Translations under genes and position numbers: made by a program
In this document: piece by piece, positions 5,386 through 44,604 of the stretch
How the letters are laid out: the number at the start of each line of letters is the position of its first letter
Position numbering within the stretch: position 1 is the stretch's first letter
The notes under the pieces: model-generated
What the model saw: only the letters and a program-made list of their open reading frames with translations
What the model was told of the DNA's origin: nothing
The model's database searches: none
Virus record (IMG/VR): IMGVR_UViG_3300020036_009452
Location: 25,428-89,427 of that record
Reading direction: 5' to 3' (one strand)
Length of the DNA stretch: 64,000 bases
Origin: a virus
Lineage: Duplodnaviria > Caudoviricetes

Positions 5386-5389
5386 ACTA

Positions 5390-11425: not shown

Positions 11426-14400
11426 TTACGGTCTTACTGGAAATATTCCGAATAAATGTTCACTGCTTTCTGAATCATTAGAAAGTAAATCTCCTATCTG
11501 CATGGAGCCGGCTAAACCAGGAATAGCACGGCCAACAGTTTTCAATCCTTTTGGCCAACCTTGTTGATCGGTTTCACCTGTTACACCCTCTGTTAGTAAA
11601 TCAAAGAATGCAAGGGCTGTTTTACCCATTTTATCAAGAGCTACAATTGGTTTCATAGCAGTATCCCATAAGTCAGCAGGGTTAGCACCACGAGTTAAGT
11701 CCATGATGGTTCTTTCTATGGAGCGCCCGACGTATGACTTCTCTTCGTCGTCATCTAGGCTAAGATGGAATATAGCTGATAACAGTAAGAACCAAAGGAA
11801 GGTATTAGTAAGTCCAGCTAGAGCTCTTGCACGGTGACCCTTTAGAGTATTCTCGCCCAGATTTTCCTCTGTTAGATATTGTTTACCCTTACCAGACATC
11901 GCTGCAAATATGGAGCTAGTGAGGACTCTTAATTGGCCTTCCATAACTTCTGAGTGCCACTGATATACGGGCATCCCATCAGGACGTTCACCCTTTAGTA
12001 CGTATTTACCTACTGTAATATCTTTATAGGGAGAAGCAAATAGAACCTTTAAATACTGGTAAAAGTATTTATGGAACTGCATGATGAAATCACCAAGCAC
12101 ACTAACTTCCATTGCAGTCTTCTCTTCTGTCCTATAAGAACCATTCAGCTTCTCATAAGCGCGCTTTAGGGATTTTATCTCAAGAGCAGTTAACTCCTTT
12201 AGTGGAACAAAAGAGCCATCAGCTAATTGTGTTACACCGCGTTCCCCTACAGTCCAGTTTCCTTTATTATCATAGGCATCCCATAGGGTAGTTTCTTTAC
12301 CAGTCGCGTCTTTTATCTTTATAGATTTCATAAGACCGGCCAACTGCCAGAGGGCACCTAGGTTCTCACCTATTTGATAGAACAAGAAGGCATTGGATGT
12401 AGCGGATAACTTTATACTCTGCGATAACAAGCGATCGTTATTCACCGCATATGGGTAGTTATCTGGTAGCCAGTCTAGATTCTTAGCTATGTTCCATAGT
12501 TTAGACTCGTCTTCTTTACCAAACATCTTAGCTTTCATGTAATCCCTAACAGCTACACGCCCGCCATCCAAATTGATAGTTTCAAAAGATTCAGGAGGAA
12601 CGCCTATAATATAGGAGAGGGCTGAATTTACCCAACCTCTAGTAGCCTGTGTGGAATTGGCTGCAGCGATCATAAGAGCATTTCTTACAGGCGACCACAC
12701 TTTAAAAGACATTACAGAATAAGTTACACTACTCTTTATAAATCTAAGTAGTCGGTCTTGTGAGACCACAATGGGCGTCCCTTCGGGGATGTCCGTAAGT
12801 TTTTCTGTGAGTTTATTGGCTTTCAGAGTTATCTTCTTAGCTGTGAGACTATCACTATCTTGTTTACCGGTAACCTGCAGAGTGATTTGATTATCTAACC
12901 ACTGCACAAGTTTGCCGTAGCGCTGTTCTCCAACCTCATTCTTTTCTTCTTGTAGACCATTGTAAACGCCTAAAGCCACATCGTAAACGGGGTCTAGTTG
13001 TTCCTTGGTCTTTAAGGAAGTCATAAAGAACTTAAAGGCGGTTTCTACATTCCAGCTATGGTTAGCTTCTGTCACTACATCTGAACCGCTGTGTTTGAAA
13101 TATCTAAGGGGGATACCAGAGTCTTCTGTTACATAATTATCCTCTAAGAAATTAGTAAGGCTTCTCTTTAGATTAGCGCCAACTACAGTCTTTAATCCGA
13201 AAACATTACTAGCAAAGTTTTCTTCTTCTCTTATTTCCGCTACGGGTTTAGGAACCCTAGGAAGAAAGTCTTCTGGAAGAGTTGGAGGAATGCCTAGCTT
13301 CTCATACCTAAGAAGAGGAACAGAAGGATCGTTAAACTTGTAGCCTACGACAGCACTTGCAAACTTATTATACTCTTTCTGCATGGTGGAGTAAACAAAG
13401 CTACGATATTCTTTCTGAGCGTTCGTAAGTGGTATTTCAACACCGTTCTCTAAATATGTATCCCTTAAGTTTAAATAGTGCCCAGGTCTTCCAATATCAG
13501 AAGACTCGCGCCACATAAACTTGAAGTGTTTCTGTGTAGTTTCATGTACATTTCTAGAAAGTATTCTGTGTGCAACTATACTACCAACGAACCATAAAGG
13601 TGAGAAAGTAGCAATCCCATAAACGTTGGCAATAGTAGCCCCTGCATTTACAACAGTCTTCCAAATACTCTTATTCTCTGGGGAGAGGGCTGCTTTATAC
13701 AGAGCGTCGTGTTCTTTCTCTGTTGTATTTAGAAAAGATTGAACGTTTCTCTTTGCATCCATTATGATTTTATGGAGTGTCTGAACTTTAGGATTAGCAA
13801 TATCGGAAAAGTTCTTAAATTTCCACAGTGATGACAGATCCTCAGTGTTGCTAGCAAGATCTGTTGCTGGGTCTTTTTCAAGTTCTAGTAATGCGTCACT
13901 ATATTGTTTAGCTAGTGGGCGAATGTGCGGATCGTTCTGGATCTCACTCTTCGTTTTACCAGCATACAACATAGCTAGTTGATTCTGTAGATAAAGATGT
14001 TTCTCTTTTAGGGTTAGGTGACCCATCTTATCTTCAAAGCTTACTAGCGATTCAGCTGTTCCTTTATAATTAGAGGCAGCAAATAAACCCTTGGCTTGGA
14101 GTTGTTCGTAGACTTGTGGATGCTTTGCTTTATAGTAATCTGCTATAGTATATAGGTATGGCTGTAAGTCCAGTTCCATTGGAGTAGCCTTTCCCTGATG
14201 ATCGATCTTTACTAATTTAATAGAGCGAAACTTCATCTCAGGAAATTTCTCCTTTAACATTATAGCACGGTAAGCCAGCTCTAGATAACCCTTTGAAAGT
14301 TTTGAGTCATTGATACCATACTTATCTCCAAAGTCCATTAAATATGGGCTACTCTTATCGCTAGTCAGATTACCAGTTTTCCAGTCTAGTAGTGTCACTT

Positions 14401-15955
14401 CACCATTATAGTGCTGAAACAAACCGTCTGCTGTAGTCCCTAGCTTATTGCCTTCTCCATCTACTAGGAGATCAGATACTAAACTAATCTCAGGAGCAGC
14501 CTTGTCTTGCTTACTCTTTGGAATCCCTTGGGTGCCAGTTGTGTCTATAATTACACCAGCTTTATCAAGGAGCGATTGAAAATTATTAGAAAGACCAGCT
14601 AGTCTTGGGTGATTATCAAAAGAAATAAAAGGCTCTCCTAATTCCTTAGCGTAAACTAATCCTTGTTGTTTTATTTTCTCCTTTTCTGTTGGAGAAGTTT
14701 CTAACCTATAGTAAATATAGGAGTGGATGAATTTACCTAAGACCCTACCAGCATTCATACGTTCTTCAAATGCCTTTGTAACTTCTGCAAAGGTAAGAGT
14801 TTGATCTCCGTATGTTATAGTCTCTGTAATGTCTTTAACATCGAGCTTATCAACATTCTTTCCACGCTGCTTAAAGAAACGCTTAGCTGCGCCTTCTGCT
14901 GGTGTGTCACTAAAGCGCTGGGCTTTGCGTGAAAACTCACCATAGACCTTATCGCCAATGAAGGCAGTCAGACGTTTTGCTATATCATTTCCAGCCGTGT
15001 CTTGATAAAATGAAGAGGTATCAGAGGTTGTATATTTTGTATTAGCCCCCATTAACTCCCCCACGTAATCGCGAAACTCTTTCTTCTGTTTTGCAAACTT
15101 ATTAGCAAGCATGTCATAAACATCATCTACCTTCTGAAAGGCTTCTGAAAGCTTTCGCCCCTCTTTACTAACACTTACATTAGATCTAGAGAGTTCCAAT
15201 ATTGTAGAGTAGGCTGTTAGATTATTACTTAATCCTAAGAGATCTCGAACATATTGAAGGAAGTACCCAAGATAGAGGGAAGCTGGATTCTTAGTCGCTA
15301 ACTTTCCTAAATAAGAAGTAACTGCTTCCTCAGCATTGTTAGGAGTCTCACCTCGCTTTACAGCGCTCTTTAATAGAAGTTGAAAAGTTTGTGGCTTTTC
15401 TATCCTGAGGGCGTGAACAAACGGGTGATAGTATTCATGGAATGGTGTGTCTTTTGTAGCGTACGCTAGATTTACAGTAACAGGTGTTTGGGAATCTCCT
15501 GTGTACTTCCCTTTAAATTTAAGCTTTGGATCATTGACTATAGTGAAGCCAAAACCAAATCTAGATTCCAATCGCTTTAATACAGTTTCAAATTCATCGC
15601 GGATAGATGGAAACTCTACTCGTTGCGAAAGAGTCTCTATGTTTGAAGCTGGGAACAGAGTCATCGTCCCCTGACTTGTTTCCACTATATCTCCAGAGAG
15701 TTTAGGATCTAAACCATTGAAACGAGTTCTAAACTTATCTATCATACTAGAATAGTCTAGCGACGTTCCTAGAAAATCTGCATACTTAGTTTTATAATAA
15801 TTGGGATCTTCACCTACTAAAGCAGCTATCTTTTCCAGTACAGGATCAGAATTAGCTGCTATAGCTTGCTCATTAAACTTTACAAGGGCCAAATCCTCAC
15901 CAAAGTCTTGGACTAGCTTTTGCCACTCTGGGCTTTTTTTATTAGGACAAATCAT
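11426..15955 (-). CDS. Giant virion ejection (RNAP-associated) protein, 1509 aa: zincin HExxH, PD-(D/E)xK nuclease-like domain, TM segments
   Basis: MICPNKKSPEWQKLV start; TPFHEYYHPF...AEEAVT; GKFIHS...TADGLF...LLDWKTG; hydrophobic segments near residue 790 and at the C-terminus. Confidence 0.7.
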   Translation of the reverse strand: MICPNKKSPEWQKLVQDFGEDLALVKFNEQAIAANSDPVLEKIAALVGEDPNYYKTKYADFLGTSLDYSSMIDKFRTRFNGLDPKLSGDIVETSQGTMTLFPASNIETLSQRVEFPSIRDEFETVLKRLESRFGFGFTIVNDPKLKFKGKYTGDSQTPVTVNLAYATKDTPFHEYYHPFVHALRIEKPQTFQLLLKSAVKRGETPNNAEEAVTSYLGKLATKNPASLYLGYFLQYVRDLLGLSNNLTAYSTILELSRSNVSVSKEGRKLSEAFQKVDDVYDMLANKFAKQKKEFRDYVGELMGANTKYTTSDTSSFYQDTAGNDIAKRLTAFIGDKVYGEFSRKAQRFSDTPAEGAAKRFFKQRGKNVDKLDVKDITETITYGDQTLTFAEVTKAFEERMNAGRVLGKFIHSYIYYRLETSPTEKEKIKQQGLVYAKELGEPFISFDNHPRLAGLSNNFQSLLDKAGVIIDTTGTQGIPKSKQDKAAPEISLVSDLLVDGEGNKLGTTADGLFQHYNGEVTLLDWKTGNLTSDKSSPYLMDFGDKYGINDSKLSKGYLELAYRAIMLKEKFPEMKFRSIKLVKIDHQGKATPMELDLQPYLYTIADYYKAKHPQVYEQLQAKGLFAASNYKGTAESLVSFEDKMGHLTLKEKHLYLQNQLAMLYAGKTKSEIQNDPHIRPLAKQYSDALLELEKDPATDLASNTEDLSSLWKFKNFSDIANPKVQTLHKIIMDAKRNVQSFLNTTEKEHDALYKAALSPENKSIWKTVVNAGATIANVYGIATFSPLWFVGSIVAHRILSRNVHETTQKHFKFMWRESSDIGRPGHYLNLRDTYLENGVEIPLTNAQKEYRSFVYSTMQKEYNKFASAVVGYKFNDPSVPLLRYEKLGIPPTLPEDFLPRVPKPVAEIREEENFASNVFGLKTVVGANLKRSLTNFLEDNYVTEDSGIPLRYFKHSGSDVVTEANHSWNVETAFKFFMTSLKTKEQLDPVYDVALGVYNGLQEEKNEVGEQRYGKLVQWLDNQITLQVTGKQDSDSLTAKKITLKANKLTEKLTDIPEGTPIVVSQDRLLRFIKSSVTYSVMSFKVWSPVRNALMIAAANSTQATRGWVNSALSYIIGVPPESFETINLDGGRVAVRDYMKAKMFGKEDESKLWNIAKNLDWLPDNYPYAVNNDRLLSQSIKLSATSNAFLFYQIGENLGALWQLAGLMKSIKIKDATGKETTLWDAYDNKGNWTVGERGVTQLADGSFVPLKELTALEIKSLKRAYEKLNGSYRTEEKTAMEVSVLGDFIMQFHKYFYQYLKVLFASPYKDITVGKYVLKGERPDGMPVYQWHSEVMEGQLRVLTSSIFAAMSGKGKQYLTEENLGENTLKGHRARALAGLTNTFLWFLLLSAIFHLSLDDDEEKSYVGRSIERTIMDLTRGANPADLWDTAMKPIVALDKMGKTALAFFDLLTEGVTGETDQQGWPKGLKTVGRAIPGLAGSMQIGDLLSNDSESSEHLFGIFPVRP

Positions 15956-18900
15956 TAGCAGTTCATTATTTTAGTGAAGATTGTGGTGAATTCTGGAATA
16001 GTGAGTGAGCGTGTTTCAATAGCATTGAAGACTTTAGAAGGAAAGGATTGGCAATACAGTGTATCTCCAATAGCACGTAGCACGTACATATAAGTATCTT
16101 CTTTTACGTATATAATGTCCCCAGCTTTCACATCGCTAAACTCGCGCCTAGCTGGCACTTGATGTTCTGCAAAAAGCTCATCATAAACAATATCGATATT
16201 TCCAATGGCTCTTGGAATATCTAGCTCTACACGCTTTTGTGCTTCTTCAAAGCGGCCATCTTCTTGAATAGTCTTTGGTAAGAACCTATCTGAGAATCCA
16301 GTCTTTGCATGTAATACCTTTGCCAAAGCTCGTCTGGCTGCTGGGAATGGAGTAAGGGATTCTAATATACTTGAGTCCACATATACATTTTTACTCAGGT
16401 CTAAAGAGTTTAGTAGTTTTACAGATAGATCGATACGTTTTGTTACTTCGGCAGAATCCATATCTGGAGTTATGTCTGCTAGAGGCAGAACAACTGCTTC
16501 CGGTAGATCCTCCTTGGTAAGTAAGACAGCTCCTGTTTTCAAAGCTTGCTCACGAACATTCTTTATCACATCTACAACAATAGTCGCACCTGTTCGTGCA
16601 CTTGTGAATGAGCCTACAAATTTCTTTATGGCTGGTGCCTGTGTTAGATTCGATAGAGGGATGCTATGTGAATACTTTAGGTTGTATTTTCTTTCAGTAG
16701 CTCCTTTATTGACTGGGGCTACAGTTTGCACTGTATATACACGCAACTCTTCTCCAGAAGCATCCTGCCGATTAAAGGTTGCGATCTTATCTCCTTCCTC
16801 TAATATATAACCATCTAGCTTCTCAACTAGAGTATTATTGCGTAGATTAGAAACATTCACAATTCTTCCATCAAAGTTTTCTAAGACATCTAGACTTAGT
16901 GTGTTATCTAATTCTTCTAGAGCAAACTTGTAGTGGGGTGTCCCGCCTTTATCAGTCAGTTTTACATAGTAGGTGTGCGTGCTACCTGGAGTTTTCTTTA
17001 GCATGTAAACCTCCTCATTGTAAAGTCTAATGAACCTTGGGGCTGTTTCAGTGTAACTTTCAGCGAACTTTAAATCGAAGTAGAATTTCTTATCATTAAG
17101 TACATCTACTCCATGATATATTTTCTGTGTGCCCCATGACACCTTCATCGTGCTTTGTACCAGGGGAGCGGTTTGTTTACGACGAACGAAGTCAGGCCTA
17201 GAGCGTAATAGTTGAAAAGTAAACGCGTCCTTCAATAAGAATAGATGCACACCACTCTTTGGATCGTCTTTTGGTATAACCGCCTCTAGTCTGGCGTCCT
17301 GTGCTGTAGAGTATGCTATTGCCCATTCGGGTGGGAATACTAGCGCCATGCCAGTACGTTCATAGTACATACCATCATTAATCAGTGAGTACTTAAACAG
17401 GTCCTGCATGAGGCTTGCCCAAGAACGTCCAACTTCTGGAATAATAGTAGAGGAAACAGAAAGCTTCAAAAAGTCTTCCCTGATTTGTTCAAGTAATTCT
17501 TCGTCGCTTACCTTATCTCCAACCATCTTTAAAGATGTAAGACCATTAGCATCTAGAGAGGGCTCTATGGCATTTAGGAATTCGTTCTCTGTGTCTGTTG
17601 CCATAGCTTTCATAAATACATTTAGGAACTCTTGTTTCCAAGCGTCCTTCCCGTAATATATTTTGTCGGCAGTTACATAGCGCGCGTCCTTTGGTACGGA
17701 TGTGGTAAACTCAGCACCATTGAGCTCGAATGTTAAATCGGCGCTCAAGAACTTTATTAATTCTTTAGACACCTCATCTACTTTCTCTAACTGGTCAAAT
17801 GCTGAGAAGATATTAGCATCTGTAATCAAACGTTTTACAAAGTTCTGTACGCTAGGATTATAAATGAAAAAGCTATTCTCCAAGATCCGTTTAAATAGTA
17901 GGAGAGCTCTATAAGCCGATAGTACGTGTGGAAGACGAAGAGGTGTTGCATTCTCAAACACAGAACTATTCGTAGGCTTTATCTTTCTGGAGATTGATCT
18001 ACGGAGAACCTTATTTACAAAAGCGGACCTTATCTGATTATAGTAGTAATTAGAAAGTTCTGGTTTCTTCTCATACTCCTTGATCTGTTGCTTCATCAGT
18101 TCTTCTGCTTCATCTACAGACTTCTCGGCTAATGCTTTATAGTCCTCAGATTCTCTAAAGGCTTCTTCTAGGACAGTTCTTAAAACCTGCTTTAGTTCTG
18201 AACTCTTGTTAGGCGTGTCAGCAAACTGAGAGTAGCGTTCTATCTTTTCGATAACAGAATCTACTTTCCAGCGTTTGTTTGGCAGCCCCATGAGTACACT
18301 ATAGATTTGAGATTGAGAGAATAACTCTTCTCCTAGAGGAATTAACTTCTCCATATTAGCAAGCACAATCAGATTAGACACTAGAGTCTGTTCTTTTGTT
18401 GCTGTGCCTGTGTATATAGCGTCAAGAACTTTAGTATTTATACCCGCAGTAGCAAAGGCTTCTAGACCTTTATTCTTGCGTAGACGCTTTATGATTTGGT
18501 CAGTTTCTTGAGGAACCAACTTTCTAATAGCGCTCTCGTAATCTTCTAAAGCGTACAGCTCATCTAGTTGAAGTTGGGCTATAGCTTTAATTTTCTCGGG
18601 AGTCCATCTACCACCTTCGTTTAAGCTCTCCATTATAGGAGTCTTAAATACTCTAGACACATTGTTTAATGAGAATCCCATACCTAGTAGCGCTAAGAAG
18701 GCATTAGCATTAGCGTTTGTTATTCCAAGTAAGTGCAGCTTCTGCATCTTAACGTTGTCAATAGCTAAGTTAATGATGGTGTCGACGGTCTCAAAAACAT
18801 TCTTAAGGTTAGAATCGAACCTTGAGAAGCCTGTTGCTTTTACGTTGTTAATCTTTATGTGTTGCTCCTCTTTTAATCTTACAGGCTCACGCTCATTAAT

Positions 18901-19410
18901 ACGAAAGCCTCCTTTTTGCACAAGACCTTCTGGAGAATTAACTTGATAGGCACGGAGAGCTTCTTCATACTCTGCACTACCCACAGTCATTACCTCTCCA
19001 GCAGGATTGATTAAACTACTTATTGGAGTTAGTTCAAAGAGGTAGGCGAGCATCTTACCAAAGTTAGCTGAAATACCTGTTAGTGCAATCCCTGAGTAAG
19101 TGTTGTAGCGTATAGTTTCCTGTGTACTGTAGTCAGTTAATTGCCCAGCTGGATTAAGCACCACATCAATCTCTTTCTTTGTCAAAGGAGCAGCTAGTTC
19201 TTTGCCTTGTTTTTTAAGTTCAAGTTGAGCCCACAGTTCTGACAGTGATTCTTCCTTAGCACGTGCATCAAAGCGTTCAATAAGTTTTGTAGCTAATTCG
19301 GTAGGTGCCTCACCCTCAAGCAAGGCACCCAATCCGTTTTCGCTTACAAAAGTATTAAACTCCTCGAAACTCATTTCTTTATCTAGAAAAGTTATTTTAC
19401 AATTTAGCAT
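15955..19410 (-). CDS. Virion RNA polymerase C-terminal (beta'-like) subunit, 1151 aa
   Basis: NTYSGIALTGISANFGK and NLAIDNVKMQKLHLLGITNAN resemble segments that follow the catalytic loop in crAss-like virion RNAPs (recalled homology). Confidence 0.65.
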   Translation of the reverse strand: MLNCKITFLDKEMSFEEFNTFVSENGLGALLEGEAPTELATKLIERFDARAKEESLSELWAQLELKKQGKELAAPLTKKEIDVVLNPAGQLTDYSTQETIRYNTYSGIALTGISANFGKMLAYLFELTPISSLINPAGEVMTVGSAEYEEALRAYQVNSPEGLVQKGGFRINEREPVRLKEEQHIKINNVKATGFSRFDSNLKNVFETVDTIINLAIDNVKMQKLHLLGITNANANAFLALLGMGFSLNNVSRVFKTPIMESLNEGGRWTPEKIKAIAQLQLDELYALEDYESAIRKLVPQETDQIIKRLRKNKGLEAFATAGINTKVLDAIYTGTATKEQTLVSNLIVLANMEKLIPLGEELFSQSQIYSVLMGLPNKRWKVDSVIEKIERYSQFADTPNKSSELKQVLRTVLEEAFRESEDYKALAEKSVDEAEELMKQQIKEYEKKPELSNYYYNQIRSAFVNKVLRRSISRKIKPTNSSVFENATPLRLPHVLSAYRALLLFKRILENSFFIYNPSVQNFVKRLITDANIFSAFDQLEKVDEVSKELIKFLSADLTFELNGAEFTTSVPKDARYVTADKIYYGKDAWKQEFLNVFMKAMATDTENEFLNAIEPSLDANGLTSLKMVGDKVSDEELLEQIREDFLKLSVSSTIIPEVGRSWASLMQDLFKYSLINDGMYYERTGMALVFPPEWAIAYSTAQDARLEAVIPKDDPKSGVHLFLLKDAFTFQLLRSRPDFVRRKQTAPLVQSTMKVSWGTQKIYHGVDVLNDKKFYFDLKFAESYTETAPRFIRLYNEEVYMLKKTPGSTHTYYVKLTDKGGTPHYKFALEELDNTLSLDVLENFDGRIVNVSNLRNNTLVEKLDGYILEEGDKIATFNRQDASGEELRVYTVQTVAPVNKGATERKYNLKYSHSIPLSNLTQAPAIKKFVGSFTSARTGATIVVDVIKNVREQALKTGAVLLTKEDLPEAVVLPLADITPDMDSAEVTKRIDLSVKLLNSLDLSKNVYVDSSILESLTPFPAARRALAKVLHAKTGFSDRFLPKTIQEDGRFEEAQKRVELDIPRAIGNIDIVYDELFAEHQVPARREFSDVKAGDIIYVKEDTYMYVLRAIGDTLYCQSFPSKVFNAIETRSLTIPEFTTIFTKIMNC

Positions 19411-22400: not shown

Positions 22401-25400
22401 CTTGGTTGGTACTAACTCAGTAATTCCATCAGCGTTCAAGTTAGCTACGTGCTTATTAAAAGCAAAGCGCACGTTAGCTTCGTGAGTGCGTTTACCGCCA
22501 CCCGTTTGAATAAGGTAGTTATAAACTTTATATATACCCAAATCCCAACGTTCAGTAAAAGCAATGGGCCTGTTCTTCCTAAGAGAAGAAACACTAGCAA
22601 TAACACTTTTAAGGAAATCAAGATCTTCAAACAGATAGTAACCGTCACTTAACGCTTGGTAACTAACCTTAGCTTTGGTAGCAAGTCCAAACACAAAGTC
22701 GTGCGTAGAACCTTGTTGATGCTCTACAGCATATCTATCAGGAAACTGTTCAACATTCCTAAGAGTCACTTGTTCTGTGGATGATCCGTCTTTTGAGTAT
22801 ATAGCATATAATCCTTTGAAGGTTGCATCTTTATGGAATGTTACAGACTGAACTCTCTTTGGTGTATTTAAACCTATTTCAATTTGATTCAGTAAGTCTA
22901 AAACGAACTTGCCTGTAGCTTGTTTAATGTTTGGTCTAGCCTTAAACCCTTGGAACTCTTTGAAGTTAGCTTTCAAAGCTTGTATTGCTTCGGCAAGAGA
23001 ACTTCTAGGTATGGATGAGAAACGTTCTAGAAGCAATGAGTAGCTTCTATTTAGATCTGCGAAATCTAGTTCACCGTTCTTCCAGTACTTTATTCCAATT
23101 AATCGCTGCTTTACAACACCTGTTAGTTTTAAACTAGGATCGATTAACATAGAGTCAAAAGTCTCAGACCGCAAACCCTCAAGCTCGCTATCTAGAGCTT
23201 CGATCTCTTCATCATTCTCTGGATCATTAGCAAGTCGTAAGTCATCTAAGCGTTCTTCCTTTTGTTGAATTTCTCGGAACTTATTCTCAGATAGTACTTT
23301 TAATACAGCACCTCTTGTTTGAGTTTGCCCAAAGTAGTATTCTACAATGTTCTTCCATAGAGCCCCATCTTTCAGAACCTTATCAATAGTGGCAACTAGT
23401 GCTCTATCTTCCAAGGTAACAGAGTCTTCACTACCCTTAAACCTACTAGTGTTATCGCGGAAATCTTTCATTCGATCCACGACAGCCTCTAGTATTTCTG
23501 AGAAACTTAGAATTCTTCCTGAACGGCGGGATTCTTGAATATCAGAGAAAGCAGTAAGTACAAAAGTTTTTAAGGCTTTGTATTCAGTGAAGTTGTCAAA
23601 CTTACTTCTTATATTAATGGCTGCTCTTTCAACAGATGTTGGATCTTGCTTCTGATAATAGAAAGCTTTGTTCTCAACTAGATTGAAGAATTGCTCAATA
23701 GACTTTATATTATTATAAGTGAATCCGAGCAAACGTTTCAGCTTATTCCAAATGATGTCAAATATAGTTGGCTTTTTCGTTTGTACGAAACCTTCAAAGC
23801 TTTCAGCCAAGCGTTCTTCTAAACCTTCATTAGAAAGATTACCATAAGTTTCTTTAGCTAAGTTCAATACTTGTATCTGCTCTGCAGGAGTTAAATATTC
23901 CCAAAAGATTTTATGGAATAATTCATGGCGTACAACTCTAGAAGAAACTTTGCCGCTTGCCAAACGAGCAAACGCCATTACTCCATCTTTATACAAACCC
24001 CACACTCTCTGACCTTGCGCATTAACAAGTTGACCATACTTCACTATTTGTGTTAGTTCATTAGGACGACCTTTTAATAATTGCTTAAAGAAGCCTAGAG
24101 GTGTTTGGCCTGTAAAGTTTTGTACATAATCAGTAATATCTGTATCTTCTAATTCTCTACCCAACTCTTCGCCTAAGAATCTTTTAGATCTTTCAAGGTG
24201 AATTTGTTTTAGCAAAGTCATGGCTCCTTGTAAAGGATCACTTTCATTTTCAGCAATAACTCTCTGTTGGAAAGCCTCATTACTAAGTAACGCATTTTCA
24301 AAGTCCTCTGCGGGAGCATCAGCTAGGCTTACTAAAGTCTCTAAGTATCCTGAGAACTCAGATGGGATAGCTAACCGTTCTGCGTCGGCCACGGTAATAG
24401 TAGTCTTTGGGGCTTCTTGTTGACGCGCTAAAGCTCTTAACTCTGTAGTTATTGGAATAAGTTGGTCAAAGATTTCATACAGATCTTCAAGTTCTGTGTA
24501 AGTGATTTGCTGTTTTAATCCAGCCTCAGTTGCTAATGTATTATAATACTTAACAATGTCTCTTAAGGTTTGTCTTGTATATGATTCATCAACTACAAAA
24601 TCACTAACTAGTTCATAAAGTCTTTCATCAAAATCTTCTTTACCAAGAGCTTTTCCTGAGTAGTAATCGGTGCGAGCAAAGTCAGCTATCGTAAATATAT
24701 CAGCTTCTGAGGAAGCATTTAATATCCTACTGATTATGGTGGCTCTAATAAAATCCCGAGACGCCACATTACCTGCGGATCTTCCTATGTCCTTTACATC
24801 CAGTGATGTAGCTACATCTTCTCGTATACGTTCTAAAGAAGAAGTTCTCTGCCCCACAACTTTCTTTAGGGCTCTAAACAAACTTACATTCCTAGTTACA
24901 TATAGTTTGCTAGCTGCAAGATTGGCTTTGTACTTCTCAACCGCCTCTTCAAAAGTGTCAGCGGCCATTACTCTTGTAAACTCTGATATAGCGTCAGAAA
25001 TAGTTTCATCAAGTTCTTCAAGCTCTTCAAGCTCTTCAAGAGTTTTTCCTTGCTCAATAGCCCTTTTTAATTTAGATAAGCTAGAAACTTTTCTAGGTTC
25101 AACCTCTTCAACCGTTTCTGTTGTTATATTAGGAGGCGATCCTACTATAAGTGCAGTGGGAGCAGCGCCAATAAAATTGGAGCCTAGTAATTCTAATGGA
25201 AGGGAAGACAGCGCTGTTTCTCTACTCACATCAAAACTCCTAGGAAGTGGTGTGCGTAACCCGAAACCTTCTGAAATATTACTGTAGTTTCCTTGTTTGT
25301 CTTTACCACGAACAAATAGATCTTCTAGATCTTCTAGAGTTATGGGGGACAAGTGTTTATCTCCCGGCGTCTCCAGTAAATCATTTACGAAATTAAAGCG

Positions 25401-28400
25401 CGAGGTGCCAACACGTGCTCTCTTTATCAGCGAGCCTCTATATACCATCAAACGATTGATGAGTTGCTCTTTAATAAGTGGATTAAAAGCTAATCCTTTT
25501 TTACGTGTGAATTTGATGGGGCCTAATAGGCTAATACCTTTGGAATCCACCATTTCAAATGAGCCATCCTCATAAGCTTTATAATCCCGAAGGATTAAGT
25601 TCTTACCATTAGGCGTAGTCACTATTAAGTTTTGACTACCTATCTCATCCATTAACAGTTGGGCCTCACCCCGATAAGCCCGGCGCTCTCCTTTAGCTAC
25701 ATTTCCATGCACTAAGAAGTCTAATTCAGAAGCCAGTTCTAATAACTTAGTTGGAATCTTTTTCCCATCTACATTTGGAAACAGGGCTTGTAAATGCTTT
25801 GCGTCAGTTAAAGTCAGCATCGCTGCTTCTCCAGCTACTAAAGCTTTATGAGTATTGGATAAGTGTGTTATAAATTCATGAAACGGGTAGTACTTTTCGC
25901 CCGCAACCTCTACGGCTAAACCAGCCCTTAAATCCTTGTATCCACCAGGAAGTTTGGAAGCGGCTAGAGCTTTTTCAAAACTGGCAAGCGTCTTGATAAA
26001 CTTATCTATGGGCTCCATATTTGTGGTCTTAGTATTTAAGACATTTGGAGTAAGATTTATGAACTGTGTTTTTACTACTCGTCCAGTGGTTGTTCTTAAT
26101 CCATGGATCAACATATATGGAGGACCAATCTTAGGCACCTCTCTTGTTGAACGCGCATCTGGGAACCAACGTTCCAAGTCTTTCTGCCCTTTAAATACGC
26201 CTACAGAAACATACTTTTCTGGATTTGCAAGGATGTCTTCATAGTTCTCTAACTTCTCATCAGCATTCGGTCCCCATAGATCATTTAAATACTTTCTTAG
26301 TATTGGCAGAACAGCTTGTGCTCCATCCTTAGAAGAAAAGGTCTCGGTAGTTTCGTTACCATACCTATATAGGATTGGGCGACTACCAGGTTGTACCCAA
26401 ACTTTAGGCCCCCTAACAGATCCTTTAAAAACATTATCCGTAGCGGTGGGTTTCACCTGCATGGTCTGCAAGCTACTTGAAGGTATTCGTACCTGCGCAA
26501 GAAAAGTAGCTTCTTCTTTGTCACCTATAACAGCAACACGCTCAAAGTAGTTTGGTTCGACCTCGCGCATCAAGACAACACGCCGAGCTGGCGATCCGTC
26601 TTTCTTTGGACTTTCGTCTACAGCCACGATGAGTTCATCTCCAGCTTTCATAGGCGCCATACCATCCACTTCTGGAATATGCGTAAATGCGCTATTAGTT
26701 GGGTGCATCATTAGGTGCGCTGATGGTGCGACTGGTTCATCTACCTCTATTGGAGGCAAGACGTCTTCCCAACCAACCTCTACAACACCCTCTTCATTGT
26801 TCTCTAGTTTGGGTGTTATAATTGGTGGTTCAGCTTGATCGGTAAGTTTTTCTAGGGTAGCAATCTTGTTGTCTAAACTAGCTAGTACTTCGGTCTGTGT
26901 AACCTTGCTTTTTGGCTGAGGGACTATCTGTGGATCAACGATATGCTCTACCTGCTGTACGCCACTAATCTGGGCATAAAGTTTAGCTCTTGATAGTGCT
27001 GTGTACACCCATTGATTATAAACTTCAATGTTACTAAAGTTAGCGTGATCTGATGGAGAAATATCAACATATACTTCATCGCGTACAATACCAGCCGCAT
27101 CGGGAACTACAAGTACAAGGGCTCCTGGGAGTGCACTTTCATAAGTAGCTTTCTTCTGCTCGGAACCTACAAGGATAACTCGGGTTCTTCCGGGATTACT
27201 GCTTTGTGATAGACGAAACTTCTCAATGATAGTATTATTCTTTTCCGCAAAGGTGCCTAGAATATTTTCTAATGATCCTTGTGGAGAAGAGGAGGACGCT
27301 GTGAAGTGTTCAGTGATTACTTCTTTACTCTTATAAAGATTCTGTAGATCTATGAGTTCTGAAATATCAGCCCTATAGGTAGATGATAGAGAAGTAATCT
27401 GCGTAAGCTTCTCTACAAACGCAAGGGAGGTTGGATTTTTTACTGCCCTTGTTCCTGATTCGTACTCAGCCTTTACATTAGCATCTCCACTATAATAATC
27501 CGTTTCTGTTTGTTGCATTGCTGCAAAGAACTCCAGATCTAGAGCTGGACGACCAACATTACCAGGAGTAACTTGGTTTGGATCATATAGTAATACGTAC
27601 TTCGTTTTTACCTTAGCGGTCTTATTATAATTGGCTACAGCTCTTGAGAAATTACTAATCGCCTCAATAGATAAGCCACCAGCTTCGTCAACTATCAGCA
27701 GCTGCGCTTCGCCTATATCCCCAGCATTTAACATTGCAGTTAAAGCTTCAACTGTATTAGCACGTGTCTCGTCACCAAGACTTTCTGCAATGTTCTGCGC
27801 GGCTAATGTATAAGGAGCCGCCGAATGTATATCTGTATTTTTTAAATCCAGAACTGCCTTTAGTATTTTAGATACAACCAAAGACTTACCAGCTCCTGCA
27901 GGTGAACGCAGGGCAGCTCCATCTGTATATAGATTGCTATCTGTTTTATTGTTAGAAACGAAAGCAGCTAATTCATATGCAACTCTAATTTGAGCCGAAG
28001 TCGGTGTAGGAAGTGTTGGATTAGCTTTAATGAAATTACGCAGCCTGGTTAGGAAAGTAACAGAACTAAATCCATTACCAGTAGAGGCTTGGATTAACTT
28101 CAAGGTAGCTAACTGGGCTTGTAATTCTAGTAATGATTTTAATTGTTCCGAAGAAGTCCCCGCGCTATAATTAGCAAGATTAGCAATAAAAGTAACAACG
28201 TCATAGTTCTTATTAAATTCTACAAGGGGGCTAATGTTTTGCCCGGCCTCAGCGTTTAGCCGTTCCTTCGCTTCTAATATACGAAAGACTTCTAGGAAAC
28301 CCCTAGATGGGGAAGCTAATATTTTCTCTAGAGATTCATCCGTTAGTCTAGGGCCAAGTCCTTGAGAGAAAAGAAGGTCAATGCCCTTAATAGCATTACG

Positions 28401-31400
28401 CGCTTTTTCTGTATAAGTTTCTATAAGCTGTTTTAATAGGACTGGTTCCTGGCGTAGGAGATCTTGAATACCCATTGCGGCAAGCTCAGGATCTGTTGTA
28501 GACAGTTCTGCAAGCGCTTGTTTGCTATCTTCACCAAGCACATCCTGAAAAGGTAGTATGTTCTGGGCATAAAACATATTCTCCTTAGTATTCTTCAAAT
28601 CTTGGTTACGCAAGTTTGCTTCGACAAGTTGTTTTACCTGACGCAACTGCTGGATAAGATTAGCAGTTTCGCGTTTTATCTGCGTCCCCATATCACCTAG
28701 ATCTGTTAGATCAATTTTATCCAACTTCTCTAAATAACTTAGCTGTTTATTCACAGCCTCTATTGCTGTGTAGTCCTCTGCAATGGTAGTGCCATTAAAA
28801 GCACTTACCTCTAAAATCCTTTTAGCTGCAAAGGTTAATTCTTTAGCTGCAAGTTTTCTGCTATCTTCTTCACTATCTAGCGGTTCAAAGCCAGCTGCCT
28901 TTTCGATTTGCGCAAGGGTTTTCTTGGTGTCGGCAATAAGCGGCTCAGCAGCAGCCTGTTCACTTCTTAGCTGGTCAAAAGCATCAAGAAGATCAAGGAG
29001 TCCATCGCCAATTTCGTCTGGGTCCATCTCGCTTAAAACTTCGTATGGAATCCCTTCTGGTAGTTGTGCTTCTAAAGCCGCTTCTTTTTCTTTCAAAGAA
29101 GACTCTATATTTATTACGTGTTCCTTTAGAGTCTGAACTTCATCAGGATATAGGAATAAATCTTTTGCTTCTACTTCTTTAACTATGTCAGATACAGAAC
29201 TTATAATATCTTTTAAATCACCAGGACGATTTTTATTCAACCTTACAACAGCATTAATTGCATCAGCATAGAAATGACTATTTGCAGTCTTTAGCTTTTG
29301 TTCCAGGTTCAGAGCTGTGGCCCTTTTATTAATATGCTTTGACACAGTACGAACATCGGCTCCCTCATCAAGAACAAGTGTCTTAGCTGCATCTCTTTTA
29401 GTTTTCAGGCTATCAAAATTGTTTGCCCGGATAGCAGCTTGAAAAGCTTTGAATCCTTTACCTGGAGTAATAAGCTTTGTATAGAGTTCGCCTAGATCTT
29501 CTAGCGCAGCATCAATGTCCCTTTTTTGAGAAGTTAATTTTGCTACTTCCTTTTCCACTAAATGATCCTTGGTCATGTACCTAGATAGAATATCCAGATC
29601 ATCGGTTTTAAATGCGTCTTGTATCTCTCTAACACGATCGGCACTTACTAGTGAAGCACTTAGATTTAGTTGTTTTTGTAAGTCCTCAGAAAGACGCTGT
29701 AGGCCCAGGATACGCCCACCCACAGAAGAAGCATATGTTTTAAGCCGCTTCAACTCCTCAGGATCATTTGTAACTCCTAGGATTGAATTTGTTGTCTGTA
29801 GATAGTTGGCCTCTAGTTGTGTTATATGTTGCTTCCATATATCAAGCTGAGAGGTGAGTTCCTTAGGATCTGTAAAGCCAAGTTCTTGGGCCTGTTCAGG
29901 AGTAGCTTGTTTGAGGGTGTCTAGTTTTTGAAGCAACAATTCAGTAGTTCCAGATCGGAAAGCAGTCTGCGCTAAATTGTTTAACTTCTCTAGTTGTAAT
30001 AACTGTAGACGATATTTATTAGCGTTCTCTTTACTAGCCTCTAGATCAAACAGATTATCTAATTCACCATGATACTTAACGTCAGCTGCAAAGGCTGCGG
30101 CTTTTACTTCGTCTTTCAATGGTAGACCGTCTTCCCCAAGTTCTAATTTCTCTGGCACTGTGTAAGCACCAGTCTCATCTGGTTGGAACTGATTGACTAG
30201 ATTGTTGTATTGTACCTCATCTATGGACTGTACCTTACCATCCTGTTCGTGATTGTACTGAGCTGTACCATCTTCGGCAACATCTTTTGTGAGTTTACCT
30301 GAAACAGCTGGTGTCTTTTTCAAGAGATCATTTGAGAAGAAATCTGTGTAGGACTTGTTCATAGACTCAAGGGCCAGATCCCGCTGTTCACGGAAACTCT
30401 TAGCCTGAGCAAAAGGACCACTCTTTACAAGATCGGCACCTAGAGTCTGCACACCACCTATTAAACTACCTAACCCTGCGGCCTTAACGCGCTCAGGATC
30501 AGAAAAGTCTAAAGCCACAGCGTCCTTAGCATAGGCTAATGCTGCGTCTGTAAAGGAAGCGTGCTCATTGAATGCCTCATTTGTTTTCTGTATGGAGTAT
30601 TGCAAGTTCTCTTCCAAGCCTTCTCCAAACATTTGAGACACGGTAGTCTTAGCAAATTGTCCAAAGGAATTACCTTCGTCAAAGAGCAAACGCTCAACAG
30701 CGCTTAGCCCCTCTTTCTTACCTACAACTTTTCCAGTTCCTTTTTGAAGTTCAAGTCCTAATTCATTTATTCGGGTAGAGGCTACCTTAGGACCTACTAT
30801 CGGACGTACTAGTTTAGTAAAGAAGTTATTTGTAACACCAGCTGTAGCGACGTTCAGCCAAAAGACATTAGATAAGGATTGGCTAGCTTTATCTTCAATT
30901 TGAGCATCTGTTAATTCTACTTCGCCACGGCTCCGTGCGGCCTCTAGTTGACTCCGCACTTGGTCCCTAGAATCTATAGCTTCAAGAGCTGACTCATTTA
31001 CTGTTAGGAATGTGTTCAGTGTTAGTTCATCTAGATTACCCGCAATCTTTGCCAGGTTTTGAGAGTTAGCATTTAATAACACATCCTTGAAGGTGCGCCC
31101 CTTAGCTAGTTGATTTATAACCCTAGTACCTACTTGGGCTTTTCCTAATAGACCAGCTAGTCCGAATCCTTGGGTTAGAAAAGATAAGGTCTCCACATTA
31201 GCTGTAGCTAATTGGCCGGGGCTAGTTAATTGTGTTAGGAAGTCTTGTGAACTAAAGTCGGCTTCTTGGAAGTGCGGAAAATACTCATCCCCCCAGGCAC
31301 TGACTGATTCGGCAAGATTCAATAAAGGATTGTTTTTAAATCCATCAGAAAACTTACCTCCGCTTACGGCCGAAGCTATTCCTTCACCTGTTGCCCACAA

Positions 31401-31667
31401 GCTGCCAATTACGGATGGAATCCCCGAAAGTGTTTTTACTCCAAGGTCTCCTAGGAAATTACCAAAAGCATTCAAGCGCCCCTGGTTCCCAAAGCGGACA
31501 TTAGCCTGATTGGAATAATCTAGGAGGCCGGCATCATAGTAATTCCCCCCGATCAATCTTCCAAGAGAAGTATCAGCACTGCCCACAGGGCTACCGCCGC
31601 CATCATAACGAGGGCGTGTGTAACTAGGAGTATTTACTGGGGATGATAATGAACTAATATCTGGCAT
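19404..31667 (-). CDS. Giant virion RNA polymerase protein, 4087 aa: SF1 helicase-like domain, zincin domain, two-barrel RNAP core
   Basis: GFRIPTTNYHS...HGSDYDLDSLF (DxDxD, about 19940-19960); SDAEGYM...KPVYY...KYSV; RHELFH...EERLAESF; SPAGAGKS/IVDEAGG/YDPNQ/YTALSRAK. Confidence 0.85.
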   Translation of the reverse strand: MPDISSLSSPVNTPSYTRPRYDGGGSPVGSADTSLGRLIGGNYYDAGLLDYSNQANVRFGNQGRLNAFGNFLGDLGVKTLSGIPSVIGSLWATGEGIASAVSGGKFSDGFKNNPLLNLAESVSAWGDEYFPHFQEADFSSQDFLTQLTSPGQLATANVETLSFLTQGFGLAGLLGKAQVGTRVINQLAKGRTFKDVLLNANSQNLAKIAGNLDELTLNTFLTVNESALEAIDSRDQVRSQLEAARSRGEVELTDAQIEDKASQSLSNVFWLNVATAGVTNNFFTKLVRPIVGPKVASTRINELGLELQKGTGKVVGKKEGLSAVERLLFDEGNSFGQFAKTTVSQMFGEGLEENLQYSIQKTNEAFNEHASFTDAALAYAKDAVALDFSDPERVKAAGLGSLIGGVQTLGADLVKSGPFAQAKSFREQRDLALESMNKSYTDFFSNDLLKKTPAVSGKLTKDVAEDGTAQYNHEQDGKVQSIDEVQYNNLVNQFQPDETGAYTVPEKLELGEDGLPLKDEVKAAAFAADVKYHGELDNLFDLEASKENANKYRLQLLQLEKLNNLAQTAFRSGTTELLLQKLDTLKQATPEQAQELGFTDPKELTSQLDIWKQHITQLEANYLQTTNSILGVTNDPEELKRLKTYASSVGGRILGLQRLSEDLQKQLNLSASLVSADRVREIQDAFKTDDLDILSRYMTKDHLVEKEVAKLTSQKRDIDAALEDLGELYTKLITPGKGFKAFQAAIRANNFDSLKTKRDAAKTLVLDEGADVRTVSKHINKRATALNLEQKLKTANSHFYADAINAVVRLNKNRPGDLKDIISSVSDIVKEVEAKDLFLYPDEVQTLKEHVINIESSLKEKEAALEAQLPEGIPYEVLSEMDPDEIGDGLLDLLDAFDQLRSEQAAAEPLIADTKKTLAQIEKAAGFEPLDSEEDSRKLAAKELTFAAKRILEVSAFNGTTIAEDYTAIEAVNKQLSYLEKLDKIDLTDLGDMGTQIKRETANLIQQLRQVKQLVEANLRNQDLKNTKENMFYAQNILPFQDVLGEDSKQALAELSTTDPELAAMGIQDLLRQEPVLLKQLIETYTEKARNAIKGIDLLFSQGLGPRLTDESLEKILASPSRGFLEVFRILEAKERLNAEAGQNISPLVEFNKNYDVVTFIANLANYSAGTSSEQLKSLLELQAQLATLKLIQASTGNGFSSVTFLTRLRNFIKANPTLPTPTSAQIRVAYELAAFVSNNKTDSNLYTDGAALRSPAGAGKSLVVSKILKAVLDLKNTDIHSAAPYTLAAQNIAESLGDETRANTVEALTAMLNAGDIGEAQLLIVDEAGGLSIEAISNFSRAVANYNKTAKVKTKYVLLYDPNQVTPGNVGRPALDLEFFAAMQQTETDYYSGDANVKAEYESGTRAVKNPTSLAFVEKLTQITSLSSTYRADISELIDLQNLYKSKEVITEHFTASSSSPQGSLENILGTFAEKNNTIIEKFRLSQSSNPGRTRVILVGSEQKKATYESALPGALVLVVPDAAGIVRDEVYVDISPSDHANFSNIEVYNQWVYTALSRAKLYAQISGVQQVEHIVDPQIVPQPKSKVTQTEVLASLDNKIATLEKLTDQAEPPIITPKLENNEEGVVEVGWEDVLPPIEVDEPVAPSAHLMMHPTNSAFTHIPEVDGMAPMKAGDELIVAVDESPKKDGSPARRVVLMREVEPNYFERVAVIGDKEEATFLAQVRIPSSSLQTMQVKPTATDNVFKGSVRGPKVWVQPGSRPILYRYGNETTETFSSKDGAQAVLPILRKYLNDLWGPNADEKLENYEDILANPEKYVSVGVFKGQKDLERWFPDARSTREVPKIGPPYMLIHGLRTTTGRVVKTQFINLTPNVLNTKTTNMEPIDKFIKTLASFEKALAASKLPGGYKDLRAGLAVEVAGEKYYPFHEFITHLSNTHKALVAGEAAMLTLTDAKHLQALFPNVDGKKIPTKLLELASELDFLVHGNVAKGERRAYRGEAQLLMDEIGSQNLIVTTPNGKNLILRDYKAYEDGSFEMVDSKGISLLGPIKFTRKKGLAFNPLIKEQLINRLMVYRGSLIKRARVGTSRFNFVNDLLETPGDKHLSPITLEDLEDLFVRGKDKQGNYSNISEGFGLRTPLPRSFDVSRETALSSLPLELLGSNFIGAAPTALIVGSPPNITTETVEEVEPRKVSSLSKLKRAIEQGKTLEELEELEELDETISDAISEFTRVMAADTFEEAVEKYKANLAASKLYVTRNVSLFRALKKVVGQRTSSLERIREDVATSLDVKDIGRSAGNVASRDFIRATIISRILNASSEADIFTIADFARTDYYSGKALGKEDFDERLYELVSDFVVDESYTRQTLRDIVKYYNTLATEAGLKQQITYTELEDLYEIFDQLIPITTELRALARQQEAPKTTITVADAERLAIPSEFSGYLETLVSLADAPAEDFENALLSNEAFQQRVIAENESDPLQGAMTLLKQIHLERSKRFLGEELGRELEDTDITDYVQNFTGQTPLGFFKQLLKGRPNELTQIVKYGQLVNAQGQRVWGLYKDGVMAFARLASGKVSSRVVRHELFHKIFWEYLTPAEQIQVLNLAKETYGNLSNEGLEERLAESFEGFVQTKKPTIFDIIWNKLKRLLGFTYNNIKSIEQFFNLVENKAFYYQKQDPTSVERAAINIRSKFDNFTEYKALKTFVLTAFSDIQESRRSGRILSFSEILEAVVDRMKDFRDNTSRFKGSEDSVTLEDRALVATIDKVLKDGALWKNIVEYYFGQTQTRGAVLKVLSENKFREIQQKEERLDDLRLANDPENDEEIEALDSELEGLRSETFDSMLIDPSLKLTGVVKQRLIGIKYWKNGELDFADLNRSYSLLLERFSSIPRSSLAEAIQALKANFKEFQGFKARPNIKQATGKFVLDLLNQIEIGLNTPKRVQSVTFHKDATFKGLYAIYSKDGSSTEQVTLRNVEQFPDRYAVEHQQGSTHDFVFGLATKAKVSYQALSDGYYLFEDLDFLKSVIASVSSLRKNRPIAFTERWDLGIYKVYNYLIQTGGGKRTHEANVRFAFNKHVANLNADGITELVPTKFLNDLYATKADTIEKQRAVLVEFLKIIGLKKRITDASPLSIERAYERLTLVLPKLQMTFASDQGEYQTLEEYNLSKGGEALLADEGSFVDDLTELINSHYTLGDTHSYTRGDGKKAFGWIDASYQTDLLGAMVNALVRKPFKKFSSFSVANDKLTTKDPFLQDNIFFKGGNKIHSFNDHDSWKQKGNERFAKYLRKENLTDFRKRHIVGNFISRLAVSRSKYYQSLPIPSNRTTITNVEVDLLKGEQVTAALKNIIRAQKNRPDPKLVDDNPTYAKNHKQWRFPGLEGSVDSLTEAAALKMIQEHVQTKVQELLPAFLSSAERKARVKIPDNSLAKTARVLGLRAFPVWSKNMTVDQIGAYHTQRNEIIEGVLKSFYYNFIINQYSLSQIVYGDETFYKSKEDQTKRIQIATATGDTVLVDPTHGIPGESNVLVVDDLQRIIPDDLEDAIAASIDASYDASDAEGYMLPEFYERLAAAYGVDSLTDVVLKPVYYSIENGVPRALKYSVKVLTDELVEKFPHLASYRQAMRDAKADQMVFASGVKIGGPSKAAKLLESGEIDTTTISDAALVSINNNNLRFQLNPASDIETSVSNPSQGTAMQNTNGQNSNEIFDLHQASALIIDNGVRQVARDMRLTPKGGLTQNSETMIRNKLQDNLEGLPGGRDVYELLKARNGQDRVSFNLPLIADRVVSSLSSMITSATTGFRFKGSKLVLQADLGKQEVTNPDGTTEFRNLKWRDEEGYCEVLLPEEYKDYMTVGDKVGISKGLVGFRIPTTNYHSLLPMKVVGFYPSPEGAAGNVIIAPSLIVYYHGSDYDLDSLFVIRKETNRDPQTLDLNPMLKEINPAHKQDDALVVNPGDVYGYSNGEPVLVNGSKLRDYLTQHIVLLTQQIATVSSQIPEASYAERSLLNKQLSAMNDTLRKLTTITEVVAKNDIVHNFASNLLERKNRADLLTPISFDDILRVKSDVEAELATLLTPENLNFYQRLAASGLIQIKC

Positions 31668-44186: not shown

Positions 44187-44604
44187 CTGTGTCTATTGAG
44201 TTGAACATTGATTGAAGAGTTGCACAATCACAGGTTGCACACGAATTTGATGCCTTCAAGGCTTCGTAAGCTAGTACTTTTTCTAGTACTGGTGTTGCAT
44301 ACCAACTTAGTGTTGTAGCAGCGCACTCTTTTCCACAAAGTATGACAGCGCAGCCTAGATCGCTTTGTATACTGGAACTAGCTAGCGTGTTTATAAATTT
44401 AATTGTGTATACCCCATCGGTGAAGGTATCCTCCATATCTACATGTTCAGGCAGAAGCGTGAAGGAGGAAATTCCTGTGGGGACAGTAACGGTGTGAGCA
44501 GTGCCGTTATATGTTACTGTTAATGTGTTAGCTGTATTTAAGACTAACAGAATATCAGATGTAATAACGATCTGAGAACACGTAGAATTAGGTGTTATAG
44601 TCAT
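44146..44604 (-). CDS. Cys-rich tail hub/structural protein
   Basis: FTDGVYTIKF; LGCAVILCGKEC; SCATCDC; CASCSC. Confidence 0.5.
   Translation of the reverse strand: MTITPNSTCSQIVITSDILLVLNTANTLTVTYNGTAHTVTVPTGISSFTLLPEHVDMEDTFTDGVYTIKFINTLASSSIQSDLGCAVILCGKECAATTLSWYATPVLEKVLAYEALKASNSCATCDCATLQSMFNSIDTDDTTTCASCSCTM

Follow-up and report, generated by a model that had tools for sequence, protein, structure and literature searches.

Among the phages that inhabit the human gut, crassviruses are the most abundant. Virion packaging and ejection of giant RNA-polymerase-associated proteins have been shown for the cultured members phi14:2 (10.1101/2020.03.07.982082) and crAss001 (PMC10172136), and gp47, gp49 and gp50 of crAss001 are virion cargo that must cross the tail partly unfolded (PMC10172136). 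Each cargo set amounts to nearly 700 kDa of protein, and its passage through the narrow tail before the DNA is still to be explained (PMC10172136). The virion RNA polymerase studied in phi14:2 is gp66 (10.1101/2020.03.07.982082); gp67-gp66-gp65 in the phi14:2 naming are gp078-gp077-gp076 in GenBank. Here we describe three giant genes, designated A, B and C, in 64,000 nucleotides (nt) of the IMG/VR virus record IMGVR_UViG_3300020036_009452, an 89-kb contig of which positions 25,428 to 89,427, the whole stretch analysed, are called the window. A, B and C encode RNA-polymerase-associated cargo proteins of a Crassvirales phage, and most of their very few cysteines (Cys) sit at chain ends that face each other in gene order. 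Such facing Cys accompany chain breaks across the relatives, and we lean towards the reading that they tie the separate chains together for ejection.

Cysteine pattern in the window

Genes A, B and C lie head to tail (Table 1). We observe that A has only two Cys, at 3834 and at its last residue, 4087, that B has Cys 4, a nonconserved Cys 1120 and, as its last residue, Cys 1151, and that the sole Cys of C is at position 3. Together this amounts to 6 Cys in 6,747 amino acids (aa), or 0.09%; the other open reading frames (ORFs) of the window contain 0.75% Cys (93 in 12,339 aa). Four of the six are at the four facing chain ends and none at the two outer ends, so that the hand count in the initial annotation (six Cys, four of them terminal, both outer ends bare) was exact. 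If six Cys are placed at random, the probability of at least four falling within 5 residues of the facing ends is 1.2e-9, a figure that is post hoc, the comparative data being the real test. Among the ~37 other ORFs of the window, none has a Cys near its N-end, and C-end Cys are found only in two Cys-rich ORFs of the tail region. The reading frames of A and B overlap by 7 nt (aaATGCtaa), with the TGC of A's Cys4087 overlapping the ATG of B, and B and C share a TAATG at their junction.

Chain ends and cysteines among the relatives

With respect to conservation, the B homologues found by a word-indexed search (n = 29, down to 28% identity) carry Cys at positions 3-6 and in the last 1-3 residues, and these terminal Cys are mostly the only ones in the protein; homologues lacking the N-end Cys were rejected as exceptions, being truncated gene calls. 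In the C homologues, the ~1,500 aa contain just one Cys, at position 3, a pattern that distant 1719-aa homologues starting MACK also fit. M1, C3 and P4 of C, whose N-end motif is MxCPNKxSxEW, are invariant alignment columns, as is C1151 of B. The terminal Cys pattern is strikingly conserved, to 28-30% identity.

Furthermore, we read whole cassettes from the DNA, with the pattern defined as Cys within ~8 residues of both ends at internal junctions and none at outer ends. Cys is present on both sides of 27/27 junctions in 18 cassettes (crAss002 being counted with a corrected start), and is absent from all outer N-ends (0/12) and all outer C-ends (0/18). In phi14:2, the 1797-aa protein has one Cys, its last residue, the RNA polymerase has Cys 3 and 2179 only, and the 1421-aa protein has Cys 3 only. 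In the specific case of crAss001, gp47 has one Cys at 2339 of 2341, gp50 has Cys 5, 1334 and 2404 of 2412, and gp49 has one Cys at position 5. The same arrangement is found in DAC15, p-crAssphage, crAss002 and Fpv1, in cr50_1, cr1_1, cr8_1 and cr6_1, and in the IMG/VR relatives L003, L005, L006, L007, L008 and L009. It had been proposed at the outset to ask across Crassvirales whether the C-end Cys of one gene occurs together with the N-end Cys of the next, with lack of conservation or of pairing counting against the idea; the answer is strongly positive, and the Cys are both kept and paired across relatives.

The crAss002 protein gp33 fits only when read from an internal MSC start, 32 codons inside the annotated ORF, which matches the MSC start of p-crAssphage gp44; the annotated start (L013:11088-11190) is probably 32 codons too early. 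Two further observations concern the reading of these cassettes. TGA encodes tryptophan in the cargo genes of L001, L002, L003, L006 and L008: an in-frame TGA (e.g., L003:6178-6180) aligns with W60 of window B, and translation with code 4 restores the broken ORFs of relatives to full length, the window itself using the standard code here. In addition, the A gene is interrupted exactly at the catalytic DxDxD codons in two relatives (L005:4160-5503 and L008:4640-6001) by inserts containing a 250-aa LAGLIDADG-type ORF (AMLLGDGSI), probably group I introns with a homing endonuclease; the downstream part resumes with YDVDTLF, ends VQC or LVC and overlaps the start of B.

An exhaustive profile search with the B alignment yielded 247 proteins of many architectures, in which true chain ends were defined by explicit rules. 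All true B N-ends have a Cys in the first 8 residues (35/35); where the start of B is fused to upstream sequence, a Cys lies ≤60 residues from the projected junction in only 2/74 proteins. Likewise, Cys occurs in the last 9 residues at 60/60 true ends coinciding with the end of the B profile, and in a wide window round the junction in 0/20 proteins with B fused downstream. In the A-B fusions of >5,000 aa, the only Cys is often the last residue or its neighbor (P0059, P0068, P0069, P0073, P0078 and P0079 are examples). Proteins in which the whole block is fused (6,108-7,277 aa) contain 0-3 Cys, never terminal: five are Cys-free (P0082, P0115, P0132, P0154 and P0188), and the remaining ones have one internal Cys each, except P0131 with three internal Cys. 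A fusion of polymerase and C in contig L016, P0187, has Cys 5 only, and the only Cys of its upstream neighbor is the last residue. Two apparent N-end exceptions were rejected as artefacts, P0156 starting 113 nt from a contig end and P0099 following a TGA in a frame where TGA encodes tryptophan. The MxCPNK motif was also sought inside the fused proteins, where it has no alignable counterpart, so that a residue-level replacement of Cys at fused junctions is not demonstrable; for the fused state, the evidence is that Cys is missing from wide windows or from the protein as a whole.

When the proteins are mapped on the Cys-free fused reference P0132, we observe three break zones, each with Cys on both sides, at ~2,530-2,970, at 4,330-4,450 (the A|B break of the window) and at 5,200-5,500 (B|C), and the outer ends never have Cys. 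In a FastTree phylogeny of the B region, the split or fused state changes at least 4 times on the N-side of B and at least 8 times on the C-side; in independent contrasts Cys follows the split state in 3/3 cases on the N-side and ~6/7 on the C-side (sign test, median p 0.03), and never the opposite, although with a quick tree these contrasts are supportive and not decisive. Depending on the lineage, the material of A, B and C is encoded on one, two or three chains. Taken together, the comparisons strongly support a pairing rule, by which every chain break would gain one Cys per new end.

A 2496-aa homologue of the polymerase part, P0173, is encoded on a bacterial chromosome (GCA_002557795.1, 5.28 Mb; L020:9001-16491). 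It has no terminal Cys. An AAA ATPase gene and CIS_TMP, the tape-measure gene of contractile injection systems, are found within a few genes of it, and P0173 may be cargo of such a system.

Identity of the cassette and its neighborhood

Several lines of evidence place the window phage in or next to Crassvirales. The portal matches phrog_6547 (E value, 9e-108) and is 27-29% identical to Crassvirales portals (cr4_1, cr10_1 and others), the Pfam ring domains PF24228 CrAss_Ring_1 (E 5e-25) and PF25702 CrAss_Ring_2 (E 4e-24) are encoded upstream of the giant genes, and PF25725 crAss_CARG1 is found in a 659-aa protein two genes upstream of A (27.7 bits, cut-off 27). With crass rings and a CARG1 domain present, the gene order matches that of crAss001: rings, a protein in the muzzle position, cargo proteins and giant RNA-polymerase-associated proteins. 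The protein in the muzzle position has 1341 aa and matches phrog_15100 ("virion structural protein"), the muzzle label coming from its position alone.

Direct comparison of A, B and C by phmmer with crAss001, phi14:2 and others matched only P0187 of L016, and profiles were therefore needed. Residues 3050-4087 of A, combined with four relatives into a profile, match the phi14:2 virion RNA polymerase (E 3e-22) over residues 853-1533, including the catalytic DFDID, as well as crAss001 gp50 (E 3e-19), DAC15_63 (E 2e-16), crAss002 gp33 (E 7e-13) and p-crAssphage gp44 (E 2e-12). The metal-binding motif of the two-barrel polymerase lies within HGSDYDLD at A 3901-3908, where HGSDxDxD is invariant in the alignment, and has the counterparts GSDFDID in phi14:2 and GSDFDVD in crAss001. 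On this evidence, A unites two proteins in one chain: the first cargo protein, which includes an AAA_30 helicase-like domain, and the virion RNA polymerase from its front through its catalytic part. We note that a packaged helicase-like module is absent from the usual description of this cargo block, and that the separate first cargo protein of L016 (2363 aa, upstream) matches the same families (Viral_helicase1, AAA_30).

By its alignment, B is the C-terminal remainder of the split polymerase. B has no direct match to phi14:2 and is placed by collinearity with P0187 and P0132: A, B and C align in order to the 3811-aa P0187 and to the fused 6,100-7,300-aa proteins, with B covering ~4354-5504 of fused P0132, right after A. 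The A|B break thus cuts the polymerase ~180 aa past DYDLD, at roughly residue 1535 of phi14:2 gp66, and this polymerase-internal break has its own Cys pair. The C profile matches phi14:2 gp076 (E 6e-11), DAC15_62 (E 4e-8) and crAss001 gp49 (E 6e-4), as well as the C-terminal end of p-crAssphage gp44, matches by which C is the third cargo protein and the orthologue of phi14:2 gp076 and crAss001 gp49. The initial annotation had taken these genes for the ejection and polymerase proteins of a Crassvirales cassette, with a split polymerase; the portal, Pfam and profile matches confirm the former, and the A and C profile matches together with collinearity put the A|B boundary inside the polymerase. 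Virion packaging and ejection of A, B and C are most likely, to judge from orthology and from their avoidance of Cys.

C also contains a candidate zincin-type metalloprotease motif, HEYYH, in which H173, E174 and H177 are invariant and whose counterpart in phi14:2 gp076 is HEIMH. This is in line with the zincin domain described for phi14:2 gp65 (10.1101/2020.03.07.982082); C has no match to a Pfam peptidase family, and the protease role is a motif-based candidate. No match to A, B or C was found in PHROGs, Pfam returned AAA_30 and AAA_19 in A and nothing else in A, B and C, GenBank phages yielded no tblastn match to B or C, and sequence searches of the PDB (with part of A and with B and C profiles) gave only noise. 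An AlphaFold2 model of A 3050-4087 from a 5-row alignment has a mean pLDDT (predicted local distance difference test) of 49.7, too low to support a comparison of folds.

The three proteins encoded directly upstream of A (659, 222 and 356 aa) have no terminal Cys and are outside the chain. Elsewhere in the window, two proteins of 152 aa (10 Cys, ending CASCSCTM) and 442 aa (13 Cys) are encoded among Cys-poor structural genes and may, by analogy with crAss001, be part of a disulfide-stabilized tail hub. A GroEL-type chaperonin gene (phrog_5725, E 7e-132) adjoins the structural module.

Table 1. Features of the cargo region and neighboring genes, in window coordinates
Feature	Position	Strand	Remark
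Gene A	19404..31667	minus	4087 aa, starts MPDISS, ends IQIKC
Gene B	15955..19410	minus	1151 aa, starts MLNC, ends KIMNC
Gene C	11426..15955	minus	1509 aa, starts MIC, ends FPVRP
Codon of A Cys4087 (TGC, last residue)	19407..19409	minus	overlaps ATG of B
Codon of B Cys4 (TGT)	19399..19401	minus	
Codon of B Cys1151 (TGC, last residue)	15958..15960	minus	invariant alignment column
Codon of C Cys3 (TGT)	15947..15949	minus	invariant in two alignments
DYDLD, A residues 3904-3908	19944..19958	minus	metal-binding motif of two-barrel RNA polymerase
HEYYH (HExxH), C residues 173-177	15425..15439	minus	candidate zincin-type metalloprotease motif
AAA_30 / AAA_19 P-loop helicase-like domain, A residues 1252-1371	27555..27914	minus	Pfam
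Three Cys-free proteins upstream of A	31672..35515	minus	659, 222 and 356 aa; 0 Cys in 1,237 aa
442-aa Cys-rich protein	42858..44186	minus	
152-aa Cys-rich protein	44146..44604	minus	
GroEL-type chaperonin gene	62134..63738	minus	

Readings of the paired cysteines and known systems

Since the outer ends are bare, the numbers on the two sides of each junction match and Cys-free single-chain forms exist, the facing ends would seem to pair with each other. We consider it reasonably probable that disulfides made in the virion join A, B and C into one ejection thread that is reduced in the host cytoplasm. We infer that the C-end Cys of each chain pairs with its counterpart at the N-end of the following one. 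A disulfide would be the simplest such link and, with a single thiol at each end, the most economical; it would form after packing into the capsid, once the particle has left the reducing cell. Together the chains would make up a single 6,747-residue thread in the order A-B-C without free internal ends, which could be extruded through portal and tail in fixed order and 1:1:1 stoichiometry, like the single-chain fused versions, and the reductants of the host cytoplasm would resolve it into separate proteins. The scarcity of other Cys would avoid mispairing, as well as oxidation during passage of the periplasm. No thioredoxin or glutaredoxin gene was found in the window's phage record, so that host reductants would have to do the release. 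In Intestiviridae, thioredoxin genes are found near the cargo block on the opposite strand (p-crAssphage gp39 and gp37, L012:24978-26245; cr8_1, L023:25230-25499); a link to chain reduction is only a thought. Extended to the whole order, the proposal is that the polymerase cargo of Crassvirales must exit the capsid as one continuous thread and that split genomes restore this continuity by disulfide, which we rate at slightly better than even.

The crAss001 virion contains inter-subunit disulfides, which are mentioned for tail and portal-vertex proteins only (PMC10172136), the phi14:2 preprint does not mention cysteine (10.1101/2020.03.07.982082), and N4-like phages eject proteins devoid of Cys, a feature attributed to passage through the periplasm (PMC11445570). 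Full-text literature searches returned no description of these terminal cysteines, in agreement with the initial annotation, which had known of none, and by the same searches the terminal-Cys end-to-end tether appears to be undescribed. A complex prediction for B 850-1151 with C 1-330 scored 0.26 (mark, 0.32), which speaks neither for nor against binding.

Several points weigh against a disulfide tether. The papers on phi14:2 and crAss001 leave these cysteines unmentioned. Assembly takes place in the reducing cytoplasm, so that a disulfide requires proximity in the capsid and some oxidant; many crassviruses, moreover, live in the anoxic gut. One Cys per end would also fit a metal bridge or pairing between copies. 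With respect to the comparative data, the rows are related, the independent events numbering ~10 and not a hundred on a quick FastTree, and many "exceptions" are fragments or wrong starts, so that the counts depend on the rules for true ends. Finally, in contig L017 a B-C fusion (P0134) has Cys 4, whereas the upstream 4014-aa protein bearing the RNA polymerase ends SLWES, without Cys, and nine small genes lie between the two. As separate observations on this contig (L017, 1-17209), one of the intervening genes encodes an 82-aa protein whose only Cys precedes the last residue by two positions, and RecA, RusA and an ART-PolyVal domain are also encoded.

Among the alternatives, it is unlikely, though it deserves attention, that the facing Cys hold the chains together noncovalently, through a metal ion that they share or some other clasp that is not a disulfide. 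The pairing rule requires only that the ends meet, not how, and neither reducing nor anoxic conditions would stand in the way of a metal clasp. A single Zn could be bound by four thiolates where the junctions of two chain copies come together, as in the zinc hook of Rad50. The copies of each protein per crAss001 virion are estimated at ~6 (PMC10172136). However, there is one Cys per end, with no conserved His or second Cys seen beside it, and tail passage requires unfolding, which a metal clasp would be less likely to withstand.

It is also quite unlikely that the terminal Cys bind another part of the virion (portal, tail barrel or inner face of the capsid) or the same end of a second copy, as anchors or dimers. 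The tail and portal-vertex proteins of crAss001 do use many inter-subunit disulfides (PMC10172136), and fusion removes both ends whatever they bind, so that the contrast between fused and split forms is insufficient alone. It is the outer ends that argue against such anchoring: they never carry Cys, neither in the cassettes counted above nor on the P0132 end map, and anchors or dimers would not spare exactly these two ends. Moreover, the Cys always come in matched C-end/N-end pairs.

We give little credence to a role confined to the time after entry, in reassembly of the chains into active polymerase or as a redox switch. The A|B break does lie within the polymerase fold, so that both ends must meet in the active enzyme, but the cytoplasm is reducing, the same rule holds at the junctions of the polymerase with its two non-polymerase neighbors, and the single-chain forms need no such device yet avoid all other Cys.

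That the pattern is a functionless by-product of gene-junction DNA (start/stop overlap or coupling signals) or of descent can be dismissed with hardly a doubt: the TGC of A does overlap the ATG of B in the window, and close relatives have TGCTAATG in common at the B|C junction, but TGT and TGC are both used, the distance of the Cys from the chain end varies (2-6 residues at the N-end and 0-8 at the C-end), successive genes may overlap by as much as 10 nt or lie up to 130 nt apart, the C-end Cys is kept in crAss001 and DAC15 with the first gene on the opposite strand, Cys persist where the genes are far apart, pairs occur at three break points and are gone at fusions, and the Cys are kept at 28% identity in proteins otherwise Cys-free. 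The comparative data already contradict this explanation, and as read from the sequences, selection is on the amino acid, not on the DNA. Two other mechanisms were considered and rejected. Against a programmed frameshift or readthrough joining the ORFs stand the lack of a conserved slippery site and the divergence of the junctions from one relative to another; against an intein or trans-splicing, the lack of any segment of intein size and the placement of the Cys, which occupies no fixed +1 position.

The break-linked Cys pairs offer a concrete hypothesis that is directly testable in cultured phi14:2, crAss001 and DAC15. If true, the disulfide tether would explain why the giant cargo proteins avoid all other Cys and why the cargo block freely tolerates gene fusions and fissions, and it would represent a new way to order and meter protein ejection, as well as a natural head-to-tail concatenation of proteins via single terminal cysteines. 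For annotation, the Mx(1-4)C motif marks the correct start codon (as for crAss002 gp33, whose start looks wrong), and the order of the chains can be read from the Cys even where the genes are not adjacent.

In comparison with the described Crassvirales blocks (phi14:2; crAss001 gp47-gp50-gp49), the cassette occupies the same locus, after the ring, muzzle and cargo 1 genes, and shares the DxDxD motif of the two-barrel polymerase, the third protein and the terminal-Cys rule. Unlike in those two phages, the first protein and the polymerase front are fused in the window in one 4087-aa chain, with the polymerase itself cut and an extra Cys pair at the cut. The single-chain polyproteins (P0132, P0115, P0082, P0154 and P0188; 6,100-7,300 aa), which Drobysheva et al. 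called "likely cleaved," are collinear with A+B+C throughout and, unlike the split chains of the window, such forms have 0-3 Cys (none in these five), none terminal; they show that the cargo is viable as an uninterrupted thread, a condition that the Cys pairs would mimic.

The N4-like Schitoviridae (N4 gp50, DEV gp71-73; PMC11445570) also eject a giant packaged polymerase before their DNA and avoid Cys. Their polymerase, in contrast to that of the window, is one chain with zero Cys and has nothing to pair. It is a T7-like single-subunit enzyme, not a two-barrel one. As for the mechanism, the closest parallel is found in two-chain toxins: in diphtheria toxin, for example, a single disulfide connects the A and B fragments and is reduced once translocation into the cytosol has taken place, so that, as proposed here, linked chains travel across a membrane and are released by reduction. 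This is an analogy of mechanism only, with no homology, the toxin chains arising by cleavage of a precursor and the cargo chains, up to 3-4 of them, being separate gene products.

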